Assembly: GCA_049651785.1 (NCBI GenBank)
Contig: JBASCT010000021.1
Coordinates: 1 to 50,850 of the forward strand
DNA from: Minisyncoccia bacterium
GTDB lineage: Bacteria; Patescibacteriota; Minisyncoccia; Phycocordibacterales; Zambryskibacteraceae
Reading direction: 5' to 3'
DNA: 50,850 bases
Of this stretch, positions 4,354 through 44,589 are shown one piece after another (position 1 is the first letter of the stretch; each line of letters opens with the position of its first letter). Below the pieces are notes generated by a model. It did no database searches. It had not been told where the DNA came from and was given only the letters and a program-made list of their open reading frames with translations. The position numbers and the translations under genes are program-made.

Positions 4354-5343
4354 CTAATTCGAGGTCGAAGCGCTGAAGACCGGGGTCACCGTGCGGTTGC
4401 CCGAGCCGTCGCGCGATTCGGCGGCGAAGTAGTAGAGAGTAGAGGTTGAGAGTCCCGAGAGATTCAGAGCATGACTCTGCTTCAAGGAAGTGTTTTCCAA
4501 GAAGTTCGTGGAAGTGGCGTTGACATCAAGCGAAGCTGAGGTGCCGTAGTAGACTTTCGAGGTTGCGTTCTCGTTTGTCTGCCAGGAAACCGTGGCACTC
4601 GTGCTTGCCACGAGGAGCGTTACATTCGAGATGGTCGGCGCCGTAACGTCGGCTACCAGAGATTTGGTCGCGAAGGAAAGCTCGGAGGAAGTCGAGACAT
4701 TTCCGGCCGCATCCTTGGAGCGAACAATGAAGTAGTAGGTGGTGGAGGCCGTAAGGTTTTCAAGAACGATTTTATGTTCTTTAACCCTATCGCTTTTTGT
4801 AACGGAAGCCGTTGTGGAGCTGTTAACATTTACTCCGGCGGTGGCGCTCCAGAAGACGGTTGAGTCCGACTTCTCGTTGGTATTCCAAGTGATCACTGCT
4901 TTCAGAGTATTCGGCTTAGCAGAGATGTTCGAGAGAATCGGCGCTACGGTGTCGACCGTGGAGGAAGCCGTGCCGGTGAAGGTGGCGTTCACTCCGAACG
5001 GCCTAAGACACTCGATAAGATCGGCAATGTCGGCGTTATTCGCCAAGAAGCCGTGACCGAAGAGGCGCTTAAAGACCTGTCGGCAGGATTTGGCGAGAGC
5101 CTGATCAGACTTCTTTTTGGTCCAATCTTCTTGTCTGTCGCTTCTCCTGTTGTCGTCTTTGTCGTCATCATCATCGTCGCTGTCATCGTCGCGATCGTCG
5201 TTGATTTCGACTCTTTCGGAACGGTCACTCGACTTGCGCTTCTTTTTGCCATTGTCGTTGTCATGGGCAAACGAGAGAGCCGGCGCGAGCAAGATTGCCA
5301 GCACGAGGGAAAACACGGTTAACTTTCTAAAGGTATCTGTCAT
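4354..5343 (-). CDS. Secreted protein with poly-Asp tract and two FN3-like repeats
   Basis: Signal peptide LVLAILLAPALSFA. DDRDDDSDDDDDDKDDN tract. Two tandem ~95-aa repeats (..ISN..W.TNE...YYF...D..GN). Confidence 0.65.
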   Translation of the reverse strand: MTDTFRKLTVFSLVLAILLAPALSFAHDNDNGKKKRKSSDRSERVEINDDRDDDSDDDDDDKDDNRRSDRQEDWTKKKSDQALAKSCRQVFKRLFGHGFLANNADIADLIECLRPFGVNATFTGTASSTVDTVAPILSNISAKPNTLKAVITWNTNEKSDSTVFWSATAGVNVNSSTTASVTKSDRVKEHKIVLENLTASTTYYFIVRSKDAAGNVSTSSELSFATKSLVADVTAPTISNVTLLVASTSATVSWQTNENATSKVYYGTSASLDVNATSTNFLENTSLKQSHALNLSGLSTSTLYYFAAESRDGSGNRTVTPVFSASTSN

Positions 5344-5488
5344 AAGGTTTTTTTAAGTTTTATGGAGACTTTTCGTCTCTCCCTTATTCAGACGCCCGAA
5401 ACGGAGGCTTCTTTCGTAGACAGGAATGGGTTTATATCGTATTGTTTTGAGGCGGGAAACCGCGAAAGTTTGTGTCCCCCAATCCGTC

Positions 5489-6007
5489 ATGTCTATTAGT
5501 GAGCTCGAAAAGCGCTTTAGCGATATTTACAATAAAGAGTCGGACGCCCTGTTCCGTTTCTGTTTCCTGCGGGTTTCCGACAGGGAAAAGGCGCTCGATC
5601 TCACTCAGGAAGCGTTTACCCGCCTCTGGCGAACTTTTACAAGCGGAAAGGAAGTAGGGAACCCGCGCGCCCTTGTCTTCGTCACGGCGCGGAATCTCAT
5701 TATCGACTGGTACAGGAGGAAGAAACCCCTCTCCCTCGAGGGGCTCTCGGCTGATGACGACAAGTCCTTCGATATTCCCGACGAGAAAGCGTTAAGAGAA
5801 ATTGAACTTTCATCCGATGCTCGGCGCGCGCTCGAACTTGTCGAGGAACTCGAAGCTGAGTACCGCGAAGTAATCTACTTGCGTTTCGTCTCCGACCTCG
5901 AGCCCCGCGATATCGCCGAGGTTTTGGGACTCAACGCCAACACCGTCTCGGTCCGCCTGACCCGGGGGATGGACGCTCTGCGCCGACTCATGGGTATCGA
6001 AAAATAG
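5489..6007 (+). CDS. ECF-type RNA polymerase sigma-70 family factor
   Basis: Region 2 (ARNLIIDWYRR) and region 4 HTH (PRDIAEVLGLNANTVSVRLTRG). ATG 5489 preferred over the track start 5426. Confidence 0.8.
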   Translation: MSISELEKRFSDIYNKESDALFRFCFLRVSDREKALDLTQEAFTRLWRTFTSGKEVGNPRALVFVTARNLIIDWYRRKKPLSLEGLSADDDKSFDIPDEKALREIELSSDARRALELVEELEAEYREVIYLRFVSDLEPRDIAEVLGLNANTVSVRLTRGMDALRRLMGIEK

Positions 6008-36414: not shown

Positions 36415-36457
36415 ACAACACTGTCTATACGTTTTCAAATAGGTGTATAATTTGTGT

Positions 36458-36844
36458 ATGTCTATATCCTTAGATGAAAACACAAAAAGGTTGTTTGCTT
36501 TAGTGTTGATTCTTGTATTTGGAGTAATAACTTTCTCTACCTATAAATATTATGCACAAGAGAACTATACTCTCTATATTAAGACAAGTTGTGATCCAAC
36601 ATTAAATAATTGTTTTGTACAAAATTGTGATAGCGAAGAAGATATACGTTGTCCTTACACAGGAGATTACTATTACAAGATAATATTAAAAAATGCTTCT
36701 CAAATACCCTCATGTTTATCTGATGATTCCAACGCCTGTGGCGAGTTGACTTGTAACGACGATAATTGTGAAATTATCTATTGTTCTGAAGAAAACATTG
36801 AATTATTCGGACCCGAAGACACCTGTTCTTCCATAAGTGACTAA
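36458..36844 (+). CDS. Membrane-anchored Cys-rich protein (hypothetical)
   Basis: TATAAT 36446-36451 lies 6 nt upstream of ATG 36458; the track GTG start 36443 would sit inside the promoter. One TM helix, then a domain with at least 10 Cys. Confidence 0.55.
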   Translation: MSISLDENTKRLFALVLILVFGVITFSTYKYYAQENYTLYIKTSCDPTLNNCFVQNCDSEEDIRCPYTGDYYYKIILKNASQIPSCLSDDSNACGELTCNDDNCEIIYCSEENIELFGPEDTCSSISD

Positions 36845-36851
36845 CAGAAAA

Positions 36852-37646
36852 ATGGTAGAAGCGACACATACCACGATTGTTAACGAGATATACTCGACTC
36901 TTTCAGAAATAGAGCACGAATTAGTAAAACGCAGAAAGAATAAAAAACTCAAAAAATTGGTAGAAGATTTTCTTGGCACTTATTTACTAGAAGAACTTAG
37001 ACTGAAACCAAGAGCAGTTTTGTCACGAACAATAATTAATCCCAACACCGAATTTAGATATTTCTTAGATTTAGCCAAAGAACTTAAACTTGATCCATTA
37101 GGATTTGAGTATCACGATAAGTTTGTGACAAAGAATCCTGACAAATATCATCTTGCAAAAATGTATTTTGCAAAAAAAGAAAACGATGGCACTCAAACTT
37201 TATCAAGTACCAAAATAGTTGATTTTAATAAATACGAAGGTAAAAATTTTGAAGAAATAAAAACCCAAAATAATGAATCTCTAATTGACTTCCATCACAA
37301 AATCCTTCTTTCTAAATATCCAGAAATGCTTAATAATATTGTAGATATTACCCAATGGTTTCAGACCACAAGAAAGTTGTCCAAGTTTTATTACTTGTAT
37401 TTTTTATCCTTGTTTATTTGTCACGGGGTGTTATTTGATAACTTTCTTTTGAAAGAAAAAGGTGAGGCAGATTTTTTTGAAGAAAAAGTTTATCCGAGTT
37501 TTCAGGAAATAAGTAAAATGTTTGGCGTTAAACCACTTATTTACCCGCTTTTACCAATAGAGTACGAAAAAGATAGCCAATGGATGGCTTACGAGGATGA
37601 TATGAAACAGGAGATTGATGACAATTTTAATGATAAACTAAAATAG
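36852..37646 (+). CDS. Hypothetical protein, ~264 aa
   Basis: Track ORF 36837..37646 (GTG). ATG 36852 is more likely. Ends 2 nt before the kinase gene. No family recognised. Confidence 0.55.
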   Translation: MVEATHTTIVNEIYSTLSEIEHELVKRRKNKKLKKLVEDFLGTYLLEELRLKPRAVLSRTIINPNTEFRYFLDLAKELKLDPLGFEYHDKFVTKNPDKYHLAKMYFAKKENDGTQTLSSTKIVDFNKYEGKNFEEIKTQNNESLIDFHHKILLSKYPEMLNNIVDITQWFQTTRKLSKFYYLYFLSLFICHGVLFDNFLLKEKGEADFFEEKVYPSFQEISKMFGVKPLIYPLLPIEYEKDSQWMAYEDDMKQEIDDNFNDKLK

Positions 37647-37648
37647 TA

Positions 37649-39274
37649 ATGGGTTACAACTTAGAACAAAATATTGAATATTGTAGAGTAATTGTGGAAG
37701 AGTTTTCTGGTCTTTTATATTACTCACACATCCCTTCTGCAGCCGTAGCACTTTTAATTGGATTTTTTGTGTTCTGGAAAAATAAAGACTCTCTTCTTGC
37801 CATTCTTTTATTGATCATTAGTGTTTTATTTACTTTCTGGAGCGCTCTAGATTTGGCTATCTGGATGAACTATGCCAAGGGTGACATTGTGATGGCGGCG
37901 TGGGCACCAATAGAGCTTATTGCTGTACTAATATTTGTTTTCTGTTTGTACTTTGTGTATGTCTTTACTGATGGTAAAGATGTAAGTCTGTCTAAAAAAC
38001 TTATTTGGACTGCCCTTGTGTTACCAATGATATTAGTTTTGCCAACAGTATTTAATCTAGAGGGCTACGATATTCAGGAGTGTATAGCAACAGAGAGTAC
38101 GTATTACCAGCTGTACTATCGTGCACTTAAAATTATATTTTCTGTATGGATAGTATTTACTCTGATTCGCAAATACATTGAAACCAAAGGTGAGTTTAAA
38201 AAACAAATAATGTTTCTAGGGCTAGGAATGACTATTTTTATTCTAAGTTTCTTTGTAGCGGGTTATGTATCAGATACAACTTTTGACTATAGTTACGAAA
38301 TGTATGGTTTGTTTGCCATGGCAATCTTCATGGCATTCCTAGCGTATCTAATTGTTAAATTTAAAACATTCCATCTTAAACTCTTTGGCGCCCAAGTTCT
38401 TATAATTTCTCTAATTATTCTCATCGGTTCTCAATTTGCTTTTATTCAGACTACTACTAATAAAATCCTTACCTCTGTAACATTAATAATTACCGGTCTC
38501 ATCGGCATTAATTTGATCAGAAGCGTTAGAAAGGAAATTGAAGCTAAGAAGCACATTGAAAAACTTGCAGGTGAGTTGCAGACAGCCAACGAAGGTCAGC
38601 AAAATCTTATCCATATTATTAACCACCAGATTAAGGGCTACTTGGCGAAGGCGAGAAATATATTCTCCGAACTTTTGAATGAGCCGAGTTATGGCCCCGT
38701 CTCGGACGCTTCTAAGCCGATGCTTGAAGAAGGATTCAAGTCGCTCACGGAGGGTGTTGACCTCGTCAAAGACTTTTTGGATGCCTCCAATATCGAGCGG
38801 GGCTCGTATGCCTTCAGTCTCGCACCCCTTGATTTCAGGGCACTCGTCGAAGAGATGGCGGAGAAAGAGAAGAGTCTCGCGGAAGATAGAAAGCTTTCTT
38901 ACGAAGTGAAAATTGAGAATGGTGACTACAACACAAAAGGGGATAAGCTCCAGCTCGGACAAGCGGTCAAGAACCTGATAGACAACTCTATCCGCTACAC
39001 TCTCGAGGGTGGTCTCTCTGTAAATCTCTCAAGGAAGGATGGCAAGATTCTCTTCTCGGTCAAAGACACTGGCGTTGGTCTCTCGGAAGAGTTGAAGCCG
39101 AAACTCTTTACCCAAGGCGGTCGTGACAAGAACTCTATCAAGATAAACATCAACTCCACTGGCTTCGGTCTCTCCTTCGTTAAAAGTGTTGTTGAAGCAC
39201 ATAAGGGTCGTGTCTGGGCCGAGTCCGACGGTCCCAACAAAGGCTCCACTTTTTACATGGAATTGCCAGTGTAA
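37649..39274 (+). CDS. Sensor histidine kinase with large multi-TM N-terminal domain
   Basis: About 8 hydrophobic helices. H-box region IHIINHQIKGYL. N box NLIDNSIRYT, G1 DTGVGL, G2 GFGLSF. No response regulator nearby. Confidence 0.85.
   Translation: MGYNLEQNIEYCRVIVEEFSGLLYYSHIPSAAVALLIGFFVFWKNKDSLLAILLLIISVLFTFWSALDLAIWMNYAKGDIVMAAWAPIELIAVLIFVFCLYFVYVFTDGKDVSLSKKLIWTALVLPMILVLPTVFNLEGYDIQECIATESTYYQLYYRALKIIFSVWIVFTLIRKYIETKGEFKKQIMFLGLGMTIFILSFFVAGYVSDTTFDYSYEMYGLFAMAIFMAFLAYLIVKFKTFHLKLFGAQVLIISLIILIGSQFAFIQTTTNKILTSVTLIITGLIGINLIRSVRKEIEAKKHIEKLAGELQTANEGQQNLIHIINHQIKGYLAKARNIFSELLNEPSYGPVSDASKPMLEEGFKSLTEGVDLVKDFLDASNIERGSYAFSLAPLDFRALVEEMAEKEKSLAEDRKLSYEVKIENGDYNTKGDKLQLGQAVKNLIDNSIRYTLEGGLSVNLSRKDGKILFSVKDTGVGLSEELKPKLFTQGGRDKNSIKININSTGFGLSFVKSVVEAHKGRVWAESDGPNKGSTFYMELPV
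38978..39271 (+). repeat. Direct repeat copy 1 (3' end of the histidine kinase gene)
   Basis: 294 nt aligns without indels to 44290-44583 with about 18 mismatches counted by eye. Codon-level similarity extends ~12 nt further upstream. Confidence 0.9.
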
Positions 39275-39289
39275 TGAATATTTAACTTT

Positions 39290-40504
39290 ATGCTCAAACG
39301 CATTACTGGATATGATTATTCTCCTGATTTAGAAGAAGTAGAGGTTATCGAGAGAAAGGGGATTGGCCATCCAGATAGCGTTGCAGACATAATTGCCGAA
39401 TCATTTTCAAATGATTATTCAAAATATTATCAAAAAAAATACGGCAAAATTTTAAATCACTGGTTTGATAAAGTTTTAATTTCTGGAGGGGAAGCTATCC
39501 TTAGACCTGGATTTGGTAGTATTATCAAAAAACCAAAGGTATATCTTTTTGGCAAAATAACCAGAGTAAGCAATGACGATTTAAATATTGAAGAATTTTT
39601 TAAAATTACAGTTTTTAGGGTAATGCGCGATATATTCGGTATTGAAGATGAAATAATGCCAGATATTGTTGTAGATACCAACTCTGGAGTCGGAGCAGAA
39701 CACCCTATAAGTTTTTATAATACCAATGTTTATGATATTACTAAAGAGAGTGATGACTTAGTTTCAAACGACACAATTTTCTGCAATGGATACTATCCAT
39801 ATACTAAATTAGAACATTACGTTTGTGACCTTGAAAATTATATTAACTCCAAATCATTTAAAGAAAATCATTATTATACTGGTTTTGATGTTAAGGTTCT
39901 TGCTAAACGAATTAAAAATAATATAGATATCACGGTATGCATTCCTTTTATTGCGGCCAGAACAGAATCTTGGGCATTATATTTTGAATTAAAGAAAAAC
40001 ATTGAAAATGATCTTTACTTTTTTACTAAAAAATTTAAGTGGGACAGCGTCAATATACACCTAAACACAAAGGATCGAGAAGGCAAGGGCTTTTTAACTT
40101 TATATGGAAGCGCCTTCGACAAGGGTGATTTTGGTGTGGTAGGTAGGGGAAATAGATATTTGGGCTTCATCACCTCTTGTCGTGGGGAAACCCAAGAAGC
40201 TTATAGTGGAAAAAACCCAGTTATTCACTCGGGAAAATTATTCTCGATAATAGCTCATCGTATTGCAAGAAAGATAAGTATTCTAGATGGTGGTCCTGTT
40301 AAGGTTATTATATGTATCAATAACGGGTCTCCTATTAAAGAACCAGAATCTGTATTTGTATTTACTAAAGATAAGAAAATATCTGATCAGCATATAAGAG
40401 GATTATTGCTCAACGAATTTAATAATATTCACAATATTACTACTCACATTATTAATTTAAATCCAGTAGAAGAGTTTGTTACAAAAAGCATTCTACTATC
40501 ATAA
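39290..40504 (+). CDS. Archaeal-type S-adenosylmethionine synthetase (MAT, PF01941-like) homolog
   Basis: ERKGIGHPDSVADIIAE, SNDTIFCNGYYP, GDFGVVGRGNR and SGKNPVIHSGK align by eye to the conserved blocks of archaeal MAT. Confidence 0.7.
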   Translation: MLKRITGYDYSPDLEEVEVIERKGIGHPDSVADIIAESFSNDYSKYYQKKYGKILNHWFDKVLISGGEAILRPGFGSIIKKPKVYLFGKITRVSNDDLNIEEFFKITVFRVMRDIFGIEDEIMPDIVVDTNSGVGAEHPISFYNTNVYDITKESDDLVSNDTIFCNGYYPYTKLEHYVCDLENYINSKSFKENHYYTGFDVKVLAKRIKNNIDITVCIPFIAARTESWALYFELKKNIENDLYFFTKKFKWDSVNIHLNTKDREGKGFLTLYGSAFDKGDFGVVGRGNRYLGFITSCRGETQEAYSGKNPVIHSGKLFSIIAHRIARKISILDGGPVKVIICINNGSPIKEPESVFVFTKDKKISDQHIRGLLLNEFNNIHNITTHIINLNPVEEFVTKSILLS

Positions 40505-40510
40505 AATATT

Positions 40511-41374
40511 ATGCATATATTGGTTTCTTTATTTCACACTACTATCGATTTGCCCAGCTTATATGTTTTTGACTCTGATTTGAATCCAGTACTTAAATTT
40601 GCAAATGAATACAGAAACATCAAAGGATTGTTTTTAAGTAAAAGTTTTATATATGCCGGCTATAAGGATGAAAATAATGATTGTTGGCTGTTAATATTTT
40701 CCAAGCAATTTTTTAAACTTGTAAATAAATGTTTACTAATAAACACCATTGACATACACTCCATCTACATAACGAATAATCTGTTGTATGTAGTATCAAG
40801 TGGGACAAACAGTATTTATGTGTATAAAATTGATAACTTGGAGAATCTGAATAAAGCCAATCCCATCAGTAACATAAAAACATTAATTACTGATATAGAC
40901 AATGAAGACATTCTTCATTTAAACAGTATTTATATAAAAGAAAACAACGACTTATTTATTACGGGTTTTGGAGGCAAGAAGCAGGGGGAATGGAATAAAG
41001 AATGCAATGGCTTCATATTGAACATTAAGCAGAATATAGTACTATTGGATGGAATATTTCACCCGCACTCATTATTTTTTAGAGACTCTGATATGTGGTT
41101 TTGTGAATCTGGTAAAAAAAGAGTATATAAAAATAAAGAAATCGTGGTGGATAAAGCAGATGGGTATACTAGGGGTCTCGCTCTTTCTGAGAACGGCAAG
41201 TTTCTATTACTAGGAACTTCTACTTCACGTATTTATGGTCAAGAAGAGGTTGACCTAAAAACAAGTGGGGTTCATAAATTTGAAATAAATGAAAAATCAT
41301 TTTTAGTGCCTGTAAAGTCATTTTATTTTAAAGATACACAGGCGGAGATTTATGACTTAATAGAGTTAAGATGA
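40511..41374 (+). CDS. DUF4915/TIGR03032-like beta-propeller protein
   Basis: LHLNSIY, HPHSLFFRDSDMWFCESGKKRV, GYTRGLAL and EIYDLIEL resemble the conserved blocks I recall for that family. Assigned from memory only. Confidence 0.5.
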   Translation: MHILVSLFHTTIDLPSLYVFDSDLNPVLKFANEYRNIKGLFLSKSFIYAGYKDENNDCWLLIFSKQFFKLVNKCLLINTIDIHSIYITNNLLYVVSSGTNSIYVYKIDNLENLNKANPISNIKTLITDIDNEDILHLNSIYIKENNDLFITGFGGKKQGEWNKECNGFILNIKQNIVLLDGIFHPHSLFFRDSDMWFCESGKKRVYKNKEIVVDKADGYTRGLALSENGKFLLLGTSTSRIYGQEEVDLKTSGVHKFEINEKSFLVPVKSFYFKDTQAEIYDLIELR

Positions 41375-42255
41375 AAAAAACGATAACTTATATTGGAATA
41401 TCGCCGTTTAATAGTAGTCCTAGAATGGGAGGCCTGAGGACAATGCTATACACATATGTTTTTACTCGTCATAATAATGGACTTATATATTTAAAATCAG
41501 ATGATACTAATCCAGGCAGTAGAATTAAGGACAACTATTATTCCCAAGTTAAGTTTTTAAATGCGTGCGGCTTAAACTTTGAAAGCAATGAGCTAAAGAA
41601 TCCTAGTGGATCATCAATTTTTCAATCTGAAAATAGCACAGTTTATACTGAATATTTAAATAAATTAGTTGATTGTGGGCTGACATCTGAAAAAGATAGC
41701 TTAGTCTCTTTAGATATTAGAGCAATAATTGATTATTTAAAATTGAAAAACATAACCATACACGATTTATTAAGGGGTGACATAAATTTTAAAGCAGATA
41801 GATTGGGTTATGAATATATACCACTATATTCTCGCAGTAAAAAAAGGTTTTTCTTCCATCTCCCAACTATTATTGATGAGTCAATCTACGGAACCACCCT
41901 GCTTATAAGAGGCGAAGATAAAATTTCTACAGCCCCGATTCATGAAATTTTAAAAAAATTCTTTTTGTTAGAGAAGCAAGATTATCTACACCTACCTTTA
42001 TTGTTAGACAAATCAACAAATAAAAGAATAAAAAGTGATAATTATTTAGTAAGCGAGATGGTCAAAAAGTACCCAACCCCTGTAGTGGTAGCATACTTAC
42101 TTTTATCTGGTTATAGGAGTAGAAGGTTTAAATATGTTTCATTAAGTGAATTTACTGAAGATTTCAATTATCACAAATTGAAAAAGCAGTCCGGAAAGTT
42201 TTATGAGGAAGATCTTATTAAAATATCCGAAAAATACCGTAAGCTAATTAAATAG
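41371..42255 (+). CDS. GluRS/GluQRS-like class I catalytic-domain paralog with degenerate HIGH and KMSKS
   Basis: ISPFNSSPRMGGLRTMLYTYVF (HIGH position reads PRMG), FQSE, LLIRGEDKISTAPIHE, YLHLPLLLD..NKRIKS. 294 aa with no anticodon-binding domain. ATGA overlap with the upstream gene. Confidence 0.6.
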   Translation: MKKTITYIGISPFNSSPRMGGLRTMLYTYVFTRHNNGLIYLKSDDTNPGSRIKDNYYSQVKFLNACGLNFESNELKNPSGSSIFQSENSTVYTEYLNKLVDCGLTSEKDSLVSLDIRAIIDYLKLKNITIHDLLRGDINFKADRLGYEYIPLYSRSKKRFFFHLPTIIDESIYGTTLLIRGEDKISTAPIHEILKKFFLLEKQDYLHLPLLLDKSTNKRIKSDNYLVSEMVKKYPTPVVVAYLLLSGYRSRRFKYVSLSEFTEDFNYHKLKKQSGKFYEEDLIKISEKYRKLIK

Positions 42256-42288: not shown

Positions 42289-43743
42289 ATGCAGAAGCAA
42301 AAGTATTTTTACATAACGACGACATTGCCGTATGTAAACGCACAACCGCACATAGGTCACGCCTTGGAATTTGTACGTGCAGATTCGATAGCAAGATATA
42401 AAAAAATTAATGGCTATAATGTCTTTTTCAACACAGGCACTGATGAGCACGGGCAAAAACTGCTAGAAGCAGCAAATAAAAAAAATATTAACATTAAAAA
42501 TTATGTTGATACCAACTCGCAAGTATTCAAAAAATTACTCGTGATTTTGGGTATAAGTGAAAACATTAATTTTATTCGTACTACTGATCCTAATCATATA
42601 AAAGCGGCACAAGAATTTTGGAAAAGGGTCGAGAAAAACGGATTTATATATAAAGCCAAATATCAGGTAAGGTATTGTGTGGGGTGTGAACTTGAAAAAT
42701 TCGACTCAGACTTGGTGGATGGGAGGTGTCAGTATCATCCGACACTAGATATTCAGATAATAAATGAGGATAACTATTTCTTTAGACTTTCTGATTTTCA
42801 AGATAGATTAATCAGTCTTTTTGAGAAAAACATAAATTTTATTTTACCAGAGTCTAGATACAATGAAGCAAAAAATTTTATTTCACATGGGCTTAAAGAT
42901 TTTTCAATATCTAGATTGAAATCAAAGATGTCTTGGGGCATTCCGGTTCCCGGCGATGACGAGCACGTAATGTATGTATGGTTTGATGCCCTAACGAGCT
43001 ACATAAACGCCTTAGGATGGCCTGAAAACGTAGAAATTTTTAAGAAATATTGGGTTAATGGAACTCCTGTTCAGTATTGTGGACAAGACAACCTAAGACA
43101 ACAGTCAATTATATGGCAAGCAATGTTGATGGCTGCTAATTTACCAAACTCTAATAAAATAATTGTAAATGGTTTTGTGCTTGGTGAAGGCGGGGTAAAG
43201 ATGTCTAAAACTGCGGGTAATGTTATAGACCCCATTAAGTTGGTTGAAAATTATGGTAAAGACGCAGTACGTTTATACTTGCTGAAAAATATCCACCCAT
43301 GGAATGGCTCACCTATTTCATACAAATCATTCCATCTTACATATGAAGCTGAGCTTGTTAATGGTCTTGGTAACTTAACCTCACGGCTGTTGAATATGTC
43401 AGAAAAATATTTAAACGAACCAGTTAGTTTCCCAGATAAATTTGAATCTAAAGAATGGTTCGACCACTTTGAAGACTATAGAATGGATTTAGTTACTGAG
43501 TTTATATGGGGGAAAATCTACAAATTAGATAAATCGATCTCTGAAACTGAACCCTTTAAATTGGTCAGTACAGATCTGCCAAAAGCGCAAATGTTGTTAA
43601 AAGAATACGCAAGAGATTTATACACTATCGCCCAAATGCTAGAGCCGTTATTACCAGAAACAAGCCGTCAAGTTAAAGGTTTAATAAAACAGAACAAAAA
43701 ACCTAGGGCACCTCTTTTTCCAAGAAAAAGGATGTTAAAATAA
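42289..43743 (+). CDS. metG: Methionyl-tRNA synthetase (core form, 484 aa)
   Basis: PYVNAQPHIGHALE (HIGH), single knuckle CVGCE...CQYH, VWFDAL, KMSKTAGNVIDP. Confidence 0.9.
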   Translation: MQKQKYFYITTTLPYVNAQPHIGHALEFVRADSIARYKKINGYNVFFNTGTDEHGQKLLEAANKKNINIKNYVDTNSQVFKKLLVILGISENINFIRTTDPNHIKAAQEFWKRVEKNGFIYKAKYQVRYCVGCELEKFDSDLVDGRCQYHPTLDIQIINEDNYFFRLSDFQDRLISLFEKNINFILPESRYNEAKNFISHGLKDFSISRLKSKMSWGIPVPGDDEHVMYVWFDALTSYINALGWPENVEIFKKYWVNGTPVQYCGQDNLRQQSIIWQAMLMAANLPNSNKIIVNGFVLGEGGVKMSKTAGNVIDPIKLVENYGKDAVRLYLLKNIHPWNGSPISYKSFHLTYEAELVNGLGNLTSRLLNMSEKYLNEPVSFPDKFESKEWFDHFEDYRMDLVTEFIWGKIYKLDKSISETEPFKLVSTDLPKAQMLLKEYARDLYTIAQMLEPLLPETSRQVKGLIKQNKKPRAPLFPRKRMLK

Positions 43744-43747
43744 TACT

Positions 43748-43822
43748 GGGAGGGTAGCTCAGCCTGGTAGAGCACTGGTATCATTTACCAGAGGTCATGG
43801 TGTTCAAATCCCATCCCTCCTA
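43748..43822 (+). tRNA. tRNA-like gene, anticodon CAT (Met/Ile2 type), atypical structure
   Basis: Hand fold. Acceptor GGGAGGG/CCCTCCT (G1-U72). D arm GCTC-AGCCTGGTA-GAGC. Anticodon stem CTGGT/ACCAG with loop ATCATTT. T arm ATGG(T)G-TTCAAAT-CCCAT needs a bulged U. No CCA encoded. Confidence 0.6.
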
Positions 43823-43860
43823 CTAACTTTAATATTAAAAATATTGTAAGAGTTGTTGCA

Positions 43861-44589
43861 ATGATTGAATTTGAAGCAAAATTTTTAGATATAGAAAAGG
43901 GAAAGATTAGGGCACTCCTAAAACATAAGGGCGCGCGCCTTGTTAGACCTGAATATAGCCAAAAACGATTCAACTTTCACCTGCCTAAAGATAAGAGATC
44001 TAATGATGCTTGGTTAAGAGTTCGTAATGAGGGTGATAGGATCACACTAGCCCTCAAAATGATTACGGGATCTAGCATAGAAGATCAGAAAGAAATCCAA
44101 CTAGTAATTGATAGTTTTGATAACGCAATTACTCTCCTTGAGTCAATAGGATGTGAGAAAAAAGCTTTTCAAGAGTCAAGGAGAGAGCTTTGGAAGTTAG
44201 GTCAAACAGAAATTACAATAGATGAATGGCCTGGATTGGAGCCGTTTGTTGAGATTGAGGGATCCTCTGAAGATGAGGTAAAAAACCCTATAGACAACTC
44301 TATCCGCCACACTCTCGAGGGTGGTCTCTCTGTAAATCTCTCAAGGAAGGACGGCAAAATTCTTTTCTTTGTCAAAGACACCGGTGTCGGTCTCTCGGAG
44401 GAGCTGAAGCCGAAGCTCTTCACCCAAGGTGGTCGTGACAAGAACTCTATCAAGATAAACATCAACTCCACTGGCTTCGGTCTCTCCTTCGTTAAATGTG
44501 TTGTTGAAGCACATAAGGGTCGTGTCTGGGCCGAGTCCGACGGCCCCAACAAGGGCTCCACTTTTTACATGGAATTGCCCGTGATTTAA
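43861..44589 (+). CDS. Chimeric ORF: C-terminally truncated CYTH (CyaB/triphosphatase-like) domain fused to a histidine-kinase HATPase_c fragment
   Basis: N-terminal IEFEAKF (ExExK) CYTH signature for about 140 aa. From ~44278 the sequence duplicates the last ~100 codons of the kinase at 37649..39274. Confidence 0.65.
   Translation: MIEFEAKFLDIEKGKIRALLKHKGARLVRPEYSQKRFNFHLPKDKRSNDAWLRVRNEGDRITLALKMITGSSIEDQKEIQLVIDSFDNAITLLESIGCEKKAFQESRRELWKLGQTEITIDEWPGLEPFVEIEGSSEDEVKNPIDNSIRHTLEGGLSVNLSRKDGKILFFVKDTGVGLSEELKPKLFTQGGRDKNSIKININSTGFGLSFVKCVVEAHKGRVWAESDGPNKGSTFYMELPVI
44290..44583 (+). repeat. Direct repeat copy 2
   Basis: See 38978-39271. The central ~110 nt are identical. Most differences are third-codon positions. 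Confidence 0.9.

Follow-up and report, generated by a model that had tools for sequence, protein, structure and literature searches.

A GluRS-like catalytic core with altered HIGH and KMSKS motifs lies in an acquired cassette with a methionine adenosyltransferase, a second methionyl-tRNA synthetase and a private tRNA in a Minisyncoccia bacterium

GluQRS (YadB) is a paralog of glutamyl-tRNA synthetase (GluRS), similar in size to the protein described here, that glutamylates queuosine in tRNA-Asp and keeps a HIGH-type motif. Non-proteinogenic tRNAs, such as the staphylococcal tRNA-Gly used by the Fem transferases, are extra isoacceptors whose features disfavour ribosomal use and which serve as aminoacyl carriers. 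Cyclodipeptide synthases (CDPSs) are descendants of the catalytic domain of class I aminoacyl-tRNA synthetases (aaRSs) in which the ATP-binding motifs are lost and aminoacyl-tRNAs serve as pre-activated substrates (PMC3105412). AcmF/AcmD (ascamycin) and SbzA (SB-203208) pass the aminoacyl group of an aminoacyl-tRNA to an adenosine-sulfamate or adenosine-sulfonamide acceptor held in the old adenylate site, and the AcmF and SbzA clusters carry an extra aaRS copy that supplies the donor and/or self-resistance (PMC12945691). The present analysis concerns a 294-aa GluRS-like protein encoded in a 50,850-nucleotide stretch of DNA (the window) from a Minisyncoccia bacterium (contig JBASCT010000021.1, assembly GCA_049651785.1), where its gene lies in a cassette with an archaeal-type methionine adenosyltransferase (MAT), a second methionyl-tRNA synthetase (MetRS) and a tRNA(CAU). 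It is read here, tentatively and with a confidence somewhat short of even, as a working enzyme derived from GluRS that would act as an ATP-independent transferase at the 3' end of a private tRNA or aminoacyl-tRNA, with the old ATP site occupied by S-adenosylmethionine (SAM) or by an adenosyl compound derived from it.

The gene of the GluRS-catalytic-core paralog occupies positions 41371 to 42255 on the forward strand, and the assignment was made by PF00749, HMMER alignment and an AlphaFold2 (AF2) model. The match to PF00749, the catalytic domain of class I E/Q synthetases, reached E 2.1e-19 and 70.1 bits against a Pfam gathering cut-off of 23.4, and with such a score it is, at the level of the profile, no chance resemblance. 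The AF2 model (pLDDT 92.6, pTM 0.90; built on 12 family members) matched bacterial GluRS catalytic cores at TMq 0.82-0.84 across the Rossmann, acceptor-binding and stem-contact domains, with a Foldseek E of 2e-20 to GluRS. The matches to GluQRS, whose core-only architecture the protein shares, were 0.71 (4a91) and 0.69 (1nzj). The initial annotation had proposed a GluRS/GluQRS-like catalytic core and had named a different Rossmann-fold family as the alternative; the PF00749 and GluRS fold matches uphold the GluRS-type core. The protein scored 93.2 bits on the bacterial GluRS model TIGR00464 (curated equivalog cut-off 289.95) and 54.8 bits on the GluQRS model TIGR03838 (curated cut-off 276.7), below the cut-off in both cases, and by these models it is neither GluRS nor GluQRS.

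In the HMMER alignment with the solved GluRS 8jpv (E 4e-20), RMGG stands opposite HVGG, in place of HIGH, and KRIKS opposite KMSKR, in place of KMSKS. Both motifs had been described as replaced or degenerate from the letters alone, with the caution that a by-eye alignment might have shifted them; HMMER found them replaced all the same, with no intact HIGH or KMSKS, and the description gained two refinements. The bacterial GluRS motif is itself H-[IV]-G-[GTSN], with only the first His truly changed and the Gly kept and family-invariant, and the KMSKS loop stays basic with an invariant Arg. The alignment spans GluRS residues 22-292 of 448 and the 294-aa protein stops at the equivalent of about residue 292, so that the C-terminal anticodon-binding domain is absent, as had been claimed, and the AF2 model consists of the catalytic, acceptor-binding and stem-contact parts only. 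The search for fused or longer forms of the protein gave none, which is weak evidence.

A word-indexed search returned 11 relatives of 274-301 aa at 41-48% identity, and an exhaustive profile search added one cluster, after which the next scores fell from 371 to 185 bits. The family contained 13 clusters, with frames intact in all. The family alignment showed 55 invariant columns, many of them in active-site blocks, namely DDTN (EDTD in GluRS), F-H (Y-H in GluRS), D-E, G-E-D-K (G-E-[DE]-[HW] in GluRS) and HLP(L). The RGExK block holds an invariant Lys where GluRS has His or Trp. The position of the first His of HIGH was Arg in seven of the 13 members, Ser in three, Gly in one and His in two, while the KMSKS loop followed the pattern [K/S/M]-R-x-[K/R]-[G/S] across the 13, with basic residues retained. 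Most members were basic (pI 8.5-9.4 in 9/13).

Three residues of Thermus thermophilus GluRS, Arg5, Tyr187 and Arg205, the binders of the Glu gamma-carboxylate, were traced in the family through a sequence alignment anchored on the shared SP, HxxxxxDD and RGE blocks. The Arg5 equivalent was Tyr or Phe in all 12 members covering the position (one member starts after it), the Tyr187 equivalent was Phe in 13/13, and the Arg205 equivalent was retained in 11/13. This pocket change from Arg/Tyr to Tyr-Phe/Phe would suit an aminoacyl group that is hydrophobic and not acidic, Met or Val for example. The variable residue (R/S/G/H) at the HIGH His position argues that classical ATP activation is gone from the family, and a key His that varies in a pocket otherwise conserved suggests a protein that still works but neither performs classical amino-acid adenylation nor binds glutamate any longer.

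The lost or altered ATP activation suggested at the outset is supported in part. The motif loss and the varied His position speak for it; the loop that stays basic and the His kept in 2/13 members would allow some residual ATP binding. The residues concerned also bear on a still ATP-dependent ligase, which we consider unlikely. In such an enzyme the Arg or retained His and the basic K-R-x-K/R loop would replace the motifs, and a non-Glu amino acid would be joined to the private tRNA, at the acceptor end or at a modified base, in the manner of GluQRS, which places Glu on queuosine. The Arg present in 7/13 members and the His in 2/13 at the HIGH His position would suit this ligase, as would a loop with an invariant Arg and K/R, and GluQRS is a precedent for a core-only GluRS paralog acting on tRNA. 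Ser or Gly at the same position in 4/13 members would not, nor would the wider clade of paralogs described below, which have K/R/T/N/E/G/S there and no KMSKS loop; the strict MAT link and the adjacent, fully competent second MetRS would also be left unexplained.

The conserved columns are likewise where a non-catalytic, tRNA-binding pseudo-enzyme is put in question. This protein would hold or deliver the private tRNA for the cassette MetRS, or sense SAM or Met, and the loss of both class I signature motifs, the absent anticodon-binding domain and the basic members (pI 8.5-9.4 in 9/13) are what it would predict. The invariant residues, however, lie in active-site blocks (DDTN, GEDK, FH, HLPL) and not on surfaces only, the new Lys in place of the GluRS His/Trp of RGExK is itself invariant, and the MetRS copy, with an anticodon-binding domain of its own, scores above the cut-off of the MetRS model, all of which make the pseudo-enzyme improbable. 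The initial annotation had offered three functions, a pseudo-enzyme, a tRNA-binding factor and an enzyme supplied with a pre-activated substrate by a neighbouring one. The third fits best, with MAT in 10/10 loci and an aaRS with a matching tRNA in 9/9, and a pure pseudo-enzyme is less likely because DDTN, FH, DE, GEDK and HLPL are invariant across members that are 41-48% identical.

Family members were found in 10 distinct loci, namely the window, L001, L003, L004, L023, L024 (Candidatus Collierbacteria), L117, L119, L120 and L123, most of them short metagenome contigs. The archaeal-type MAT gene lay directly upstream of the GluRS-like gene in all 10, with a DUF4915 gene alone intervening in three. 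Cassette genes often overlapped by 4-11 nt, and this translational coupling was kept across different lineages. Nine loci had downstream sequence, and these contained a MetRS of about 482 aa in eight cases and a valyl-tRNA synthetase (ValRS) in one (L001/L002; convergent, NF004349, 870 bits, above cut-off). A tRNA adjoined the synthetase in all nine; its anticodon was CAU in each of the eight cases with MetRS and UAC in the one with ValRS. The cassette MetRS proteins were mutually closer (660-800 bits pairwise) than the GluRS-like proteins. Genes for nucleotide handling recurred as accessories (NUDIX, CYTH, a weak NDK-like protein and a sulfotransferase, the latter in the Val locus).

The nine distinct cassette tRNA sequences shared one cloverleaf, with compensatory double changes in 13 of 22 pairs. 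U72 and A73 were invariant and no CCA was encoded. Nucleotide 1 was G, A or C, so that the 1:72 pair was G.U, A-U or a C/U mismatch and never G-C, and G5.U68 was present in six of the nine. Position 37 of tRNAs is almost universally a purine and normally carries t6A for A-starting codons; in the cassette tRNAs with a CAU anticodon it was a pyrimidine in 8/8 (U in seven, C in one). Positions 32 and 38 were pairable (A:U or U:G), and the tRNA of L120 (3692-3766) had C33 in place of the near-universal U33. The private tRNA(CAU) of the window, at 43748 to 43823 on the forward strand, has G1.U72, A73, no encoded CCA, U37, a pairable A32/U38 and a 1-nt T-stem bulge formed by an extra U. The tRNA-model scores of cassette tRNAs, 49 and 53 bits, were near the bottom within their genomes.

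With these features the cassette tRNAs look like molecules kept for synthetase recognition (anticodon, A73) and not for efficient decoding. A constant acceptor stem beside an anticodon that tracks the neighbouring synthetase is what would be expected where the acceptor end is read by a second protein blind to the anticodon, a role for which the GluRS-like core is the evident candidate. An initiator tRNA was considered and rejected, as the anticodon stem is without the three G-C pairs and the T loop is of the elongator type. A tRNA-Ile2 carrying lysidine is unlikely, since the genome has a tRNA-Ile(UAU) gene (contig C25, 77591-77664), by which AUA can be decoded without need of a lysidine-modified tRNA(CAU), as well as two other tRNA(CAU) genes. 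Three tRNA(CAU) genes were found in total, of which contig C25 carries two and the third directly follows the cassette MetRS.

The source assembly (570 kb, 38 contigs, 96% complete) is typical of Patescibacteria/CPR. It contained a canonical GluRS elsewhere, with HIGN and KLSKR, and a separate housekeeping MetRS on contig C34. The cassette MetRS, at 42289 to 43743 on the forward strand, is intact, with HIGH and KMSKT present, and is 45% identical to the housekeeping enzyme. The cassette MAT (PF01941), at 39290 to 40504 on the forward strand, keeps its catalytic blocks, which are conserved with solved archaeal MATs and across the cassette copies. Bacterial MetK was absent from the source genome, where the archaeal-type cassette gene is the single MAT, and the Candidatus Collierbacteria genome with the cassette also had two MetRS genes and no MetK. 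Among 150 sampled genomes of the same class, 36 contained MetK, three contained the archaeal-type MAT and about 110 contained neither; most of the class apparently cannot make SAM, yet encode SAM-dependent enzymes. As about 110 of the 150 have neither MAT type and only three have the archaeal one, the MAT belongs to the cassette, and its reading as a simple housekeeping gene was rejected on the same counts. The GluRS-like family is itself rare, being found by a pattern scan in one of 185,579 species-representative genomes and in none of 400 other sampled genomes of the phylum.

The profile search also returned many proteins of 430-460 aa sharing a DDTN + RGxDK signature. In these paralogs the KMSKS loop is absent and the HIGH His position is K/R/T/N/E/G/S, while a C-terminal domain and the Arg5 and Tyr187 equivalents are retained. 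The window protein fits the signature, with DDTN and RGEDK, lost HIGH and KMSKS motifs and an adjacent MAT. A maximum-likelihood tree split off canonical GluRS with a support of 100 and placed the present family as a clade (support 100) on a long branch (1.87) among the motif-less paralogs; on this tree the family is nested in the wider motif-less clade as a truncated, tRNA-equipped offshoot. The initial annotation had mentioned neither this membership in a larger, SAM-linked clade nor the lost Arg5 and Tyr187 equivalents.

Seven wider-clade loci were analysed (L020, L021, L032, L033, L034, L035 and L036). A contig scan with the wider-clade alignment used a pattern that was too general and returned mostly canonical GluRS, with L033-L036 alone usable. 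The paralog gene was within a few genes of an archaeal-type MAT in five of the seven loci and of a SAM hydroxide adenosyltransferase (SAM_HAT, PF01887) in the other two; with one or the other near the paralog in all seven, the link of motif-less GluRS paralogs to SAM enzymes is general. A Peptidase_S51 gene (class I glutamine-amidotransferase-like fold) adjoined the paralog in 7/7 wider-clade loci, and no such gene was present in any of the 10 core-family loci. In L034, a 391-aa protein (4376-5551) between the MAT and S51 genes matched the catalytic domain of class II AlaRS very weakly (E 0.026), a match of note since AcmF is AlaRS-like. A tRNA-Asp next to the MAT in L032 was considered as a cassette part and rejected, as it is an ordinary tRNA with its own terminator.

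The SAM-enzyme neighbours, present in 17/17 loci of both subgroups (MAT or SAM_HAT), also agree with a strictly SAM-dependent modification of tRNA or aminoacyl-tRNA. Here a methyl or 3-amino-3-carboxypropyl group, or homoserylation, would be placed on A76 or on the alpha-amine of Met- or Val-tRNA, and no small-molecule product would be made; this overlaps the ATP-independent transferase outlined above and is separate from it only by chemistry. The lost phosphate-binding motifs with the nucleoside-pocket blocks kept, and the conserved acceptor end of the private tRNA, would be in keeping with such a modification. Against these stand the recurring nucleotide-handling accessory genes and the Peptidase_S51 of the wider clade, which it would leave unexplained, and the fact that we know of no SAM-dependent transferase with an aaRS fold; on balance it is a possible but somewhat unlikely explanation.

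In the ATP-independent transferase that we tentatively favour, the GluRS-like core would be the constant coupling component of a four-part mobile cassette. The archaeal-type MAT would make SAM, and a second synthetase of class Ia, which is MetRS here and ValRS in one relative, would charge the private tRNA, whose anticodon matches the synthetase and which would not be built for decoding. The core would then recognise the conserved acceptor end (weak or mismatched N1:U72, A73) and, while the former ATP/AMP pocket holds SAM or an adenosyl compound derived from it, catalyse a transfer at the tRNA 3' end that needs no ATP. We regard as most likely the variant in which an adenosine-type acceptor receives the aminoacyl group of Met- or Val-tRNA, along the lines of CDPS, AcmF and SbzA, and in which the extra synthetase would supply the donor and possibly protect the cell; it is suggested by the Tyr-Phe/Phe pocket, the recurring nucleotide-handling genes and the synthetase being a second copy. 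A close alternative would be that SAM drives the alkylation of either the 3' end of the tRNA or the aminoacyl group or its amine. A further proposal, that SAM replaces the aminoacyl-adenylate, is doubtful. The GluRS core would in that case bind SAM in the Glu-AMP site and use the sulfonium energy, and not ATP, for loading or alkylating the private, non-decoding tRNA at its 3' end, by 3-amino-3-carboxypropyl or homoseryl transfer to A76 or by N-alkylation of Met- or Val-tRNA. The binding of SAM and of tRNA, the direction and chemistry of the transfer and any product are predictions made from sequence and gene order.

Several points weigh against the transferase. The role of SAM is inferred from the gene neighbourhood, and to our knowledge no enzyme of aaRS fold uses SAM. 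Arg at the His position (7/13), the His kept in two of the 13 and the basic KMSKS loop would allow residual ATP or phosphate binding, and the active-site assignments were made by sequence alignment, with residue roles transferred from T. thermophilus GluRS. A ValRS was seen at one locus only, represented by two near-identical contigs, and this convergent gene could be the housekeeping copy of that organism. No conserved exporter or other tailoring genes were found in the cassette loci, which is thin for a biosynthetic cluster. The wider clade is without a private aaRS/tRNA pair, keeps its anticodon-binding domain and always occurs with Peptidase_S51, and the core family and the wider clade may not be of one chemistry.

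The cassette of the window, with the order MAT, DUF4915, GluRS-like, MetRS, tRNA(CAU) and truncated CYTH, has the four parts proposed above within about 4.5 kb. The DUF4915/TIGR03032 beta-propeller gene, at 40511 to 41374 on the forward strand, is an optional member (3/10 loci), and its end, with the stop, shares 4 nt with the start of the GluRS-like gene. Its protein gave structural matches to BtuG, YncE and 6-phosphogluconolactonase-like proteins (TMq about 0.6) that were nonspecific, the model being a generic beta-propeller from which no function is drawn. A direct repeat of 300 nt, from the 3' end of a histidine-kinase gene, brackets the cassette, with the left copy at 38965 to 39264 and the right copy, 93% identical to it and 5312 nt downstream, at 44277 to 44576. 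The right copy is joined in frame to a CYTH part, forming a CYTH::HATPase_c chimeric ORF at 43861 to 44589 on the forward strand that contains the first ~141 residues of the CYTH domain and the duplicated HATPase_c end of the histidine kinase. Cassette genes had 30.5-35% GC, the lowest in the assembly, against a genome mean of 49.7%, and of all 5-kb windows in the 570-kb assembly, the four lowest in GC lay at 32.5-45 kb of this contig. By its GC content and its bracketing repeat, the cassette is an acquired, foreign element in this genome.

This setting, the lowest-GC island of the genome with a repeat-bracketed cassette that ends in a chimeric ORF, is also what a decaying GluRS fragment might show, with its synteny owed to hitch-hiking on a mobile element. 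Such decay is disfavoured and very improbable, as all 13 clusters, at 41-48% identity, have unbroken frames and share 55 invariant columns, AF2 models the protein with confidence, and the translational coupling is kept across different lineages. The PADLOC defence-system models gave no match among the cassette proteins. Phage records contained no close relatives of the GluRS-like protein; their matches were at most 25% identical and were ordinary GluRS/GluQRS-like genes, for which reason a phage origin was dropped as a positive claim. Complex prediction of MAT with the GluRS-like protein gave a score of 0.00, from which no inference is drawn.

Further genes were noted beside the cassettes and the wider-clade loci. 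The histidine kinase of the window and a small gene upstream of it (36443-36844) had homologues about 4 kb downstream of the wider-clade paralog in L033, another Patescibacteria genome (11740-13882, corresponding to 36443-39274 of the window; kinase 368 bits). A protein of about 162 aa without a Pfam family was encoded just after the cassette tRNA in L003 (11181-11669), in L024 (10439-10927) and probably in L120 (3789-4280), and once in the wider clade (L036, 2897-3406); the window is without it, and one copy matched nucleoside diphosphate kinase weakly (E 0.004). A Stf0-like sulfotransferase was directly upstream of MAT in the ValRS-type cassette (L001, 376-1140) and a sulfatase-family gene followed the paralog in L032 (5753-6655), which together may hint at sulfated or sulfamoyl adenosine chemistry. 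In L004 (6618-8362; also L005 and L006), a C39 bacteriocin-processing peptidase and a radical SAM gene lay 3' of the cassette and a NUDIX gene 5' of it, and this neighbourhood looks like an antagonism or secondary-metabolism island.

Full-text searches of the literature turned up no account of the family, of the wider clade or of the cassette. The ATP-activation-free aaRS offshoots CDPS, AcmF and SbzA opened new tRNA-dependent chemistry, and the present protein, if the transferase is true, would be the first from GluRS. The cassette packs its own SAM supply, a synthetase and a rule-breaking tRNA into hosts with genomes of 0.6-0.8 Mb that are mostly without a SAM synthetase. Being small, it is directly reconstitutable, and could test SAM in place of the aminoacyl-adenylate on an aaRS scaffold; should SAM act in that way, the enzyme would represent a new class, built on such a scaffold, in which SAM drives tRNA 'charging'. 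Reconstitution could also show whether ultra-small symbionts make aminoacyl-adenosine-type compounds. The natural synthetase/tRNA pair, apparently apart from normal decoding, is of interest for genetic-code engineering.

Compared with known systems, the GluRS-like protein may be likened to the aaRS-derived enzymes that work without activation, and it appears to be a member of neither the GluRS, GluQRS, CDPS nor AcmF/SbzA families. GluQRS/YadB (TIGR03838) resembles it as a core-only GluRS paralog of about 290 aa that has no anticodon-binding domain and acts on tRNA. GluQRS, however, keeps HIGH, a KMSKS-type loop and the Glu binders and activates Glu with ATP, whereas the present protein has lost the motifs and the Arg5 and Tyr187 equivalents, and its gene is tied to MAT, an aaRS and a private tRNA. 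The full-length motif-less paralogs in MAT operons of Patescibacteria share DDTN for EDTD, RGxDK for RGE[DE][HW] and the loss of HIGH and KMSKS, but differ in their length of 430-460 aa with a C-terminal domain, in their Arg5 and Tyr187 equivalents, in their Peptidase_S51 neighbour and in having no private aaRS/tRNA. CDPSs, unlike the present protein, derive from TyrRS/TrpRS, form a Ser-bound acyl-enzyme, yield a cyclodipeptide product and have no private tRNA, MAT or aaRS partner. AcmF and SbzA are full-length AlaRS-like and IleRS-like proteins of Streptomyces, respectively, with neither private tRNA nor MAT, and SbzA keeps HYGH and AMSKA. In contrast to the staphylococcal tRNA-Gly, the tRNA described here is encoded in a cassette with its own synthetase, and its deviations are the pyrimidine at position 37, the pairable 32:38 and the weak 1:72 pair.

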